NCBI RefSeq assembly: GCF_000026545.1
Contig: NC_011601.1
Direction: 5' to 3' (one strand)
Length of the DNA stretch: 64,000 nt
Origin: Escherichia coli O127:H6 str. E2348/69
Lineage (GTDB): Bacteria; Pseudomonadota; Gammaproteobacteria; Enterobacterales; Enterobacteriaceae
Positions 17,776-20,700 of the stretch are shown in pieces; the first letter of the stretch is position 1, and every line of letters starts with the position of its first letter. Position numbers: made by a program.

Positions 17776-20700
17776 TAAGCCATGGCCAGAGCGCGTGGAC
17801 GAGGTCGTCGCGATCTCAAGTCCGAAATCAACATTGTACCGTTGCTGGACGTACTGCTGGTGCTGTTGCTGATCTTTATGGCGACAGCGCCCATCATCAC
17901 CCAGAGCGTGGAGGTCGATCTGCCAGACGCTACTGAATCACAGGCGGTGAGCAGTAATGATAATCCGCCAGTGATTGTTGAAGTGTCTGGTATTGGTCAG
18001 TACACCGTGGTGGTTGAGAAAGATCGCCTGGAGCGTTTACCACCAGAGCAGGTGGTGGCGGAAGTGTCCAGCCGTTTCAAGGCCAACCCGAAAACGGTCT
18101 TTCTGATTGGTGGCGCAAAAGATGTGCCTTACGATGAAATAATTAAAGCACTGAACTTGTTACATAGTGCGGGTGTGAAATCGGTTGGTTTAATGACGCA
18201 GCCTATCTAAACATCTGCGTTTCCCTTGCTTGAAAGAGAGCGGGTAACAGGCGAACAGTTTTTGGAAACCGAGAGTGTCAAAGGCAACCGAACAAAACGA
18301 CAAGCTCAAGCGGGCGATAATTATTTCAGCAGTGCTGCATGTCATCTTATTTGCGGCGCTGATCTGGAGTTCGTTCGATGAGAATATAGAAGCTTCAGCC
18401 GGAGGCGGCGGTGGTTCGTCCATCGACGCTGTCATGGTTGATTCAGGTGCGGTAGTTGAGCAGTACAAACGCATGCAAAGCCAGGAATCAAGCGCGAAGC
18501 GTTCTGATGAGCAGCGCAAGATGAAAGAGCAGCAGGCTGCTGAAGAACTGCGTGAGAAACAAGCGGCTGAACAGGAACGCCTGAAGCAACTTGAGAAAGA
18601 GCGGTTAGCGGCTCAGGAGCAGAAAAAGCAGGCTGAAGAAGCCGCAAAACAGGCCGAGTTAAAGCAGAAGCAAGCGGAAGAGGCGGCAGCGAAAGCGGCG
18701 GCAGATGCTAAAGCGAAGGCCGAAGCGGATGCTAAAGCTGCGGAAGAAGCAGCGAAGAAAGCGGCGGCAGACGCGAAGAAAAAAGCAGAAGCAGAAGCCG
18801 CCAAAGCCGCAGTCGAAGCGCAGAAAAAAGCCGAGGCTGCTGCGGCGGCGCTGAAGAAGAAAGCTGAAGCGGCAGAAGCAGCTGCAGCTGAAGCAAGAAA
18901 GAAAGCGGCAACCGAAGCTGCTGAAAAAGCCAAGGCAGAAGCTGAGAAGAAAGCGGCTGCTGAAAAGGCTGCAGCTGAAAAGGCAGCAGCTGATAAGAAA
19001 GCAGCGGCAGAAAAAGCCGCCGCAGACAAAAAAGCGGCAGCGGCAAAAGCAGCAGCTGAAAAAGCCGCTGCAGCAAAAGCTGCCGCAGAGGCAGATGATA
19101 TTTTCGGTGAGCTAAGCTCTGGTAAGAATGCACCGAAAACGGGGGGAGGGGCGAAAGGGAACAATGCTTCGCCTGCCGGGAGTGGTAATACTAAAAACAA
19201 TGGCGCATCAGGGGCCGATATCAATAACTATGCCGGGCAGATTAAATCTGCTATCGAAAGTAAGTTCTATGACGCATCGTCCTATGCAGGCAAAACCTGT
19301 ACGCTGCGCATAAAACTGGCACCCGATGGTATGTTACTGGATATCAAACCTGAAGGTGGCGATCCCGCACTTTGTCAAGCTGCGTTGGCAGCAGCTAAAC
19401 TTGCGAAGATCCCGAAACCACCAAGCCAGGCAGTATATGAAGTGTTCAAAAACGCGCCATTGGACTTCAAACCGTAATCGCGATGTTGACTGTTCCGACG
19501 GTCAACATCAGGCACCGGTTGCCACGGGGTTCTGGTAGTTTTGTGTATTTTAGTTTGTTAACATTCTGCTAAATTATCGTGGGCCATCGGTCCAGATAAG
19601 GGAGATATGATGAAGCAGGCATTACGAGTAGCATTTGGTTTTCTCATACTGTGGGCATCAGTTCTGCATGCTGAAGTCCGCATTGTGATCGACAGCGGTG
19701 TAGATTCCGGTCGTCCTATTGGTGTTGTTCCTTTCCAGTGGGCGGGGCCTGGTGCGGCACCTGAAGATATTGGCGGCATCGTTGCTGCTGACTTGCGTAA
19801 CAGCGGTAAATTTAATCCGTTAGATCGTGCTCGTCTGCCACAGCAGCCGGGTAGTGCGCAGGAAGTACAACCAGCTGCATGGTCCGCGCTGGGCATTGAC
19901 GCTGTGGTTGTCGGTCAGGTCACTCCGAATCCGGATGGTTCTTACAATGTCGCTTATCAACTGGTTGACACTGGCGGCGCACCGGGTACTGTACTTGCTC
20001 AGAACTCGTACAAAGTGAACAAGCAGTGGCTGCGTTATGCTGGTCATACCGCCAGTGACGAAGTGTTTGAAAAACTGACCGGTATTAAAGGTGCGTTCCG
20101 TACCCGTATTGCCTACGTTGTTCAGACTAACGGCGGTCAGTTCCCGTATGAACTGCGCGTATCTGACTATGACGGTTACAACCAGTTTGTCGTTCACCGT
20201 TCACCGCAACCGCTGATGTCTCCGGCGTGGTCACCAGACGGTTCTAAACTGGCTTATGTGACCTTCGAAAGCGGTCGTTCCGCGCTGGTTATTCAGACGC
20301 TGGCAAATGGCGCTGTACGTCAGGTGGCTTCATTCCCGCGTCACAACGGTGCACCTGCATTCTCGCCAGACGGCAGCAAACTGGCATTCGCCTTGTCGAA
20401 AACCGGTAGCCTGAACCTGTACGTAATGGATTTGGCTTCTGGTCAGATCCGCCAGGTAACTGATGGTCGCAGTAACAATACCGAACCGACCTGGTTCCCG
20501 GACAGCCAGAACCTGGCATTTACTTCTGACCAGGCCGGTCGTCCGCAGGTTTATAAAGTGAATATCAACGGCGGTGCGCCACAACGTATTACCTGGGAAG
20601 GTTCGCAGAACCAGGATGCGGATGTCAGCAGCGACGGTAAATTTATGGTAATGGTCAGCTCCAACGGTGGGCAGCAGCACATTGCCAAACAAGATCTGGC

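Follow-up and report, generated by a model that had tools for sequence, protein, structure and literature searches.

The tolA gene of the diarrhea-causing strain Escherichia coli O127:H6 str. E2348/69, as found in the window (the whole stretch of 64,000 nucleotides that was analyzed, from contig NC_011601.1), is very probably a shortened allele within the known tolA tandem-repeat polymorphism, generated by a single 63-bp deletion and encoding a protein that works. The polymorphism was reported in 2012 (Zhou, Vanoirbeek, Aertsen, and Michiels, Res Microbiol; Zhou, Michiels, and Aertsen, PLoS One, PMC3477136), its phenotypic effects were published in the same year (PMC3477136), and the E2348/69 gene is publicly annotated at 400 amino acids, so that the finding as such is already known. 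Our addition is a small one, namely, only the precise structure of the E2348/69 junction, which is limited to one strain among complete genomes.

The open reading frame concerned sits between tolR and tolB in the tol-pal operon, which is laid out in the window as follows.

16685-17089, plus strand: ybgC, intact, upstream operon gene
17086-17778, plus strand: tolQ, intact, upstream operon gene
17782-18210, plus strand: tolR, intact, upstream operon gene
18275-19477, plus strand: tolA coding sequence, 400 codons and a stop codon, starting with GTG; EPEC E2348/69 allele, WP_000030660.1
19610-20902, plus strand: tolB, intact, downstream operon gene (RefSeq coordinates converted to the window)
20937-21458, plus strand: pal, intact, downstream operon gene (RefSeq coordinates converted to the window)
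21468-22259, plus strand: cpoB, intact, downstream operon gene (RefSeq coordinates converted to the window)

In the six-frame list of open reading frames, the translation of tolA begins MSKATEQNDKLKRAIIISAVLHV and ends APLDFKP. The same 1,203-bp coding sequence is annotated as tolA by RefSeq in E2348/69 (EPEC O127:H6; WP_000030660.1; 100% match), and positions 15275 to 22477 of the window agree with the E2348/69 RefSeq record at every base. The protein matches the NCBIfam TolA equivalog NF007065 over amino acids 1 to 400 (579.5 bits; cutoff, 213) and TIGR02794 (306.5 bits; cutoff, 59.45), and its residues 304 to 398 cover the full profile (positions 1 to 96) of PF06519, the Pfam model of the TolA C-terminal domain (E = 1.8e-38). 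Judged by its sequence, the open reading frame is TolA, as all sequence-level defining features of that protein are present. When it was used as a megablast query, tolA was found in 5,425 of 5,426 complete E. coli genomes. Separately, a promoter and terminator scan inside tolA found more hits resembling terminators on the minus strand than expected (9 versus 2.9), and the six-frame list contains long open reading frames antisense to the gene; we regard both as by-products of the GCN/AAA codon repeats.

The original prediction held that this 400-residue frame is shorter than K-12 TolA, given as about 421 residues, and that the difference probably lies in the Ala/Lys/Glu-rich repeat region at roughly 18600 to 19100. 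Alignment to the reference protein and a count of the repeat units bore out both points. K-12 BW25113 tolA measures 1,266 bp and encodes 421 and not 400 amino acids (WP_000030637.1), and it has 13 repeat units versus 9 in the window, where 21 amino acids (63 bp) of the repeat tract are absent; the gap falls at 18974 to 18978, wholly inside the domain II tract and not outside the repeats. At the protein level the two differ by one 21-residue gap and one substitution, A180V, so that 399 of 400 aligned residues are identical, and domains I and III are the same. The DNA alignment likewise contains a single in-frame gap of 63 bp, together with 18 nucleotide mismatches, among which the only protein-changing one is that for A180V. 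The gap is a deterministic sequence difference, and chance is therefore not at issue. To place the allele among its relatives, we assembled a panel of the window gene and 14 other natural alleles of differing length, which were fetched and compared by script. Val180 is common to eight of these other alleles (CFT073, SCU-124, SCU-116, ATCC 11775, NC101, 382634_2f, THO-015, and EC444) and is therefore not specific to E2348/69. The Val180 codon, the repeat tract, and the deletion junction lie at the following positions.

18812-18814, plus strand: codon of Val180, GTC; K-12 has GCC (Ala)
18947-19090, plus strand: tandem-repeat tract, nine imperfect 15- or 18-bp units, 144 bp
18974-18978, plus strand: deletion junction, GCTGA microhomology, joining the end of TR2 (GCT GA/T) to that of TR6 (GCT GA/A)

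Repeat units were defined as in PMC3477136, that is, as 15 or 18 bp encoding K(K)AAA(E/D/A). By this definition, the tract, which is located at the C-terminal end of helical domain II, reads KKAAAE, KAAAE, KAAAD, KKAAAE, KAAAD, KKAAAA, KAAAE, KAAAA, and KAAAE in the window, where Tandem Repeats Finder reported periods of 15 and 33 at 18945 to 19089. The 13-unit tract of K-12 and of the B2 parent allele is 207 bp long (tolA nucleotides 673 to 879). The missing block corresponds to nucleotides 700 to 762 of the 13-unit allele, inside the tract; it begins with the final base of unit 2 and reaches the equivalent position in unit 6; its 63 bp (15 + 18 + 15 + 15) represent four units lost in frame, which takes the count from 13 to 9. 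The junction creates a hybrid unit, AAG GCT GCA GCT GAA (KAAAE), and TR7 to TR13 follow unchanged. The 63-bp block can be placed at six equivalent positions in the 13-unit allele, and the junction microhomology is therefore 5 bp.

Once this block is taken out of the SCU-124 allele (phylogroup B2, 13 units, 1,266 bp), whose protein, WP_000030657.1, is also that of CFT073, the result is the window tolA with 0 residual mismatches, a sequence relationship that suggests one recent contraction. Two sequences alone do not reveal which way an indel went, and short-read assemblies can collapse repeats of 15 to 18 bp, which would leave room for the 400-residue form to be a collapsed-repeat assembly or sequencing artifact, or to be ancestral, with an insertion in K-12. 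We give these explanations practically no weight. Three complete assemblies that were produced separately (all of one strain) contain the 1,203-bp gene, and the exact 400-residue protein is also encoded by an independent ENA contig and found in 84 index blocks of public assemblies; moreover, the repeat units are individually distinct, which makes a collapse unlikely, and the artifact was rejected. An exact-sequence look-up in a clustered protein collection gave no match to the 400-residue TolA with either V or M as its first residue; this blank is an indexing matter rather than absence, because the gene-position index lists the protein. An insertion in K-12 as the source of the difference was rejected as well, given that the 13-unit state, with its unit-specific sequences unchanged, is seen in ∼69% of genomes from different phylogroups and that 13 units are also present in a B2 allele whose sequence outside the gap matches the window gene exactly. 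Since 13 units are the majority state and the unit-specific sequences of units 2 to 6 are common to K-12-type and B2-type alleles, we infer that a 13-unit allele of phylogroup B2 was the source and that the deletion took place within the E2348/69 lineage.

A contraction in two steps, with a five-unit deletion followed by a duplication, was rejected too, as the hybrid unit at the junction copies no unit of the 8-unit allele. Sister B2 alleles of other lengths differ from the window gene by 2 to 4 mismatches outside the indels, and each carries its own indel in the same tract: SCU-116 has 8 units, ATCC 11775 has 12 units, and THO-015 and 382634_2f carry +45 bp and +72 bp, respectively.

The 63-bp contraction itself probably came about by slipped-strand mispairing or by microhomology-mediated illegitimate recombination between homeologous units, at the 5-bp GCTGA. 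The units at the breakpoints are indeed homeologous, with flanks that are identical at 44 of 65 positions around the 5-bp exact match, and because the exact junction homology amounts to only 5 bp, either of these would be the more likely route for the window junction. Efficient RecA pairing normally takes roughly 20 to 30 bp, far more than the exact homology at this junction, and a flank identity of 44/65 is below the usual requirement of a RecA-type exchange. Both points speak against RecA-dependent unequal homologous recombination between repeat units, in place of replication slippage, which we consider a possible but distinctly less probable origin of the deletion. That both breakpoints lie in homeologous units would suit such an exchange, and RecA is the predominant route in laboratory measurements, where tolA contracts at a frequency of 6.9e-5 that goes down to 15% in a recA mutant (85% of contractions being RecA dependent) and up 3.3-fold in a uvrD mutant (PMC3477136). 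However, the event that RecA favors is a different one. The strongest internal repeat of the tract has a 78-bp period and includes a 20-bp stretch of exact identity, and a five-unit deletion was seen in nearly all laboratory contractions (PMC3477136); an exact deletion of this kind (78 bp, five units, 20-bp junction homology) also occurs naturally in the 8-unit allele of SCU-116 and in at least seven other genomes. While the laboratory-dominant contraction (PMC3477136) thus removes 5 units or 78 bp, the window junction joins TR2 to TR6 and removes 63 bp, or four unit equivalents, and so belongs, by its sequence, to a rarer, low-homology class. The earlier description of the region as prone to slippage is supported, its instability being evident from the 15 panel alleles (394 to 445 amino acids), with the qualification that the published contractions are mostly RecA dependent and not pure slippage.

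We then asked how widely this junction is distributed. Among the 5,426 complete E. coli genomes, a 66-bp junction query gave one contiguous match in three records only, which are E2348/69, “E2348/69 variety 2,” and an engineered derivative and hence represent one independent strain. In the remaining genomes among the matches listed, the query aligned in two pieces spanning 129 bp (66 + 63, the undeleted form), with the exception of strain 361, where the span was 114 bp. With one independent strain carrying the junction, no recurrence or enrichment is visible.

Length variation of tolA as such, in contrast to this particular junction, is common. In two samples, each drawn at even spacing from the complete ranking of 5,425 genomes, the gene had 1,266 bp (13 units) in 27 of 40 and 41 of 59 records. 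Approximately 31% of the sampled genomes therefore differ from the K-12 length, which makes the window variant unexceptional as a class. Across all searches the range was 1,185 to 1,338 bp, all in frame, and the lengths seen were 1,185, 1,188, 1,203, 1,215, 1,221, 1,233, 1,245, 1,251, 1,260, 1,263, 1,266, 1,275, 1,290, 1,296, 1,299, 1,311, 1,314, 1,335, and 1,338 bp. This agrees with the published survey of 234 E. coli isolates, which describes 8 to 16 units with 13 units in 66% (PMC3477136), a natural range that includes the nine units of the window.

No indel in the panel disrupts the reading frame, and all of them affect the same part of domain II; they lie within or directly abut the repeat tract, except for a 2-residue deletion in NC101 (tolA nucleotides ∼604 to 611). 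Of the 15 alleles, 14 leave the last six units intact, the exception being EC21Z-048, in which these units contain a 48-bp duplication; none of the 15 lacks TR12-13. The window allele resembles the polymorphism described in 2012, in which TR12-13 were never deleted, in all of these respects: the tract is the same, whole units change in frame, and TR12-13 are retained (PMC3477136). At least seven distinct length alleles occur on B2 backbones that are at most five point mutations apart and 0 to 4 from the window gene, so that length changes accumulate at least as fast as substitutions.

Such a rapid turnover would be open to selection, and a nine-unit length that was selected in the EPEC E2348/69 lineage, with tolA as a contingency locus and the nine-unit allele as a lineage-defining adaptation of EPEC1/O127:H6, might reflect bile tolerance traded for less uptake of group A colicins and Ff phages or a Tol-Pal reach tuned to the envelope. 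In favor of this reading, deoxycholate tolerance varies by four orders of magnitude among constructs of 2 to 39 units, the authors of that work note that length distributions differ in some pathogens, and plating of phage fd drops to 28 to 43% in all variants without 13 units (PMC3477136). Nevertheless, we regard selection for nine units as improbable. The junction is confined to one independent strain among the 5,426 complete genomes, 13 units are the majority across phylogroups and have been argued to be the best compromise (PMC3477136), and a shorter tract means less bile-salt tolerance, the benefit of which to a gut pathogen is hard to see. An allele that is neutral or nearly so is the most likely reading.

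To assess whether a nine-unit TolA would be expected to function, we located its domains and their relation to the deletion.

18275-18376, plus strand: domain I, transmembrane helix, amino acids 1 to 34; identical to K-12, modeled helix 2 to 34
18452-19114, plus strand: helical region of domain II, amino acids 60 to 280; predicted helix 60 to 196, break 197 to 199, helix 200 to 280
19049-19150, plus strand: CpoB/YbgF-binding segment, amino acids 259 to 292 of the window protein (280 to 313 in K-12); includes TR12-TR13, identical to K-12
19184-19468, plus strand: domain III, amino acids 304 to 398, PF06519; identical to K-12

Relative to K-12, nothing has changed in the transmembrane anchor, in the part of domain II that binds CpoB, or in domain III, to which TolB, colicins, and the phage protein g3p bind; the first helix of domain II is retained as well, so that the parts needed for function are all there. 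Residues S18, H22, L29, and S33 of the SHLS motif, as read from the translation, are present in the transmembrane helix, where this motif couples TolA to TolQR (PMC10666116), and K-12 residues 280 to 313 are reported to bind CpoB/YbgF (PMC8928145 and PMC3477136). In single-sequence AlphaFold2 models (pTM, 0.25 to 0.29), from which we used the secondary structure alone, a helix break is predicted near residue 200 in the window and K-12 proteins alike, and the second domain II helix would span residues 200 to 280 here versus 204 to 302 in K-12, being about 18 to 21 residues shorter. A loss of ∼21 residues from this helix would correspond to about 3 nm as an α-helix. Both the length and the structure of domain II are needed to cross the periplasm (PMC10666116, PMC12204202, and PMC8928145), and partial deletions of the domain are tolerated until its reach becomes insufficient (PMC12204202 and PMC10666116). 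The ∼240 residues of domain II would measure ∼360 Å when fully extended, exceeding the 250 to 300 Å reported as the width of the periplasm (PMC8928145).

The effect of the unit number on phenotype has been determined with isogenic constructs in MG1655, whose own tolA has 13 units, carrying 2, 6, 8, 13, 26, or 39 units (PMC3477136). Variants with 6 and 8 units were expressed normally and fully restored tolerance to SDS, to hyperosmotic conditions, and to NaCl at pH 5, but their deoxycholate tolerance was below that with 13 units (PMC3477136). Across the constructs with 2 to 39 units, the plating efficiency on deoxycholate covered four orders of magnitude, and phage fd plated on the 6- and 8-unit variants at ∼36 to 38% of the wild-type level, which is within the 28 to 43% recorded for all non-13 variants (PMC3477136). 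Because its domains are intact and variants of 6 to 39 units are tolerated (PMC3477136), we infer that the nine-unit protein is a working TolA, which would stabilize the outer membrane and serve the import of group A colicins and Ff phages. By analogy with these constructs, the allele would be expected to confer normal SDS and osmotic tolerance and a lower plating of Ff phages, and its deoxycholate tolerance would be lower, possibly by more than tenfold, as extrapolated from the 8- and 13-unit variants of MG1655.

A 400-residue TolA should thus not be labeled truncated or defective, and beyond correct annotation the significance of the shortened protein is small. E2348/69 is a widely used EPEC model, and its nonstandard TolA length could have a slight influence when bile tolerance, colicins, or Ff phages are studied in it. 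The TR2/TR6 junction is also a handy marker of the E2348/69 strain.

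An exact 78-bp deletion removing five repeat units characterizes the tolA gene of SCU-116 (1,188 bp), a natural allele with 8 units whose deletion junction carries 20 bp of homology. This 8-unit allele, which has the same B2 backbone as the allele of the window, was found in SCU-116 and at least seven other genomes. Contraction by five tandem repeats was the dominant event among laboratory selections (Zhou et al. 2012, PMC3477136), and the SCU-116 deletion appears to be the natural counterpart of that contraction, judging from its size and its 20 bp of junction homology.

Comparison of the allele panel also placed one substitution relative to K-12 in the window:

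18812-18814, plus strand, codon of the A180V substitution in TolA

Given that A180V is common to eight further panel alleles (CFT073, SCU-124, SCU-116, ATCC 11775, NC101, 382634_2f, THO-015, and EC444), it is not private to E2348/69 and, judging from these sequences, may be a marker of the B2-type backbone. The tolA gene of 382634_2f is an expanded allele of 1,338 bp, encoding 445 amino acids. Its repeat tract contains an odd “KKQKKY” run amid otherwise regular KAAAE/KAAAD units. The run has the look of a brief shift out of frame, or of a sequencing error that was compensated, inside a duplicated block.

Two long open reading frames overlap the tolA repeat tract in antisense:

18613-19224, minus strand, open reading frame of 203 amino acids
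18732-19133, minus strand, open reading frame of 133 amino acids

Both have Ala/Ser/Phe- or Leu-rich compositions, and the minus strand of tolA shows an excess of terminator-like hairpins (9 versus 2.9 expected). Neither the frames nor the hairpins look like real genes or signals; both seem to be side effects of the repeated GCN and AAA codons.

Downstream of cpoB, the window contains a tRNA array:

22423-23235, plus strand, array of eight tRNA genes

The gene order is Lys-Val-Lys-Val-Lys-Lys-Lys-Lys, all within 813 bp, whereas the array of K-12 BW25113 comprises seven genes (Lys-Val-Lys-Val-Lys-Lys-Lys) over about 1,100 bp, with much longer spacers. E2348/69 thus has one more tRNA-Lys(UUU) and shorter spacers.
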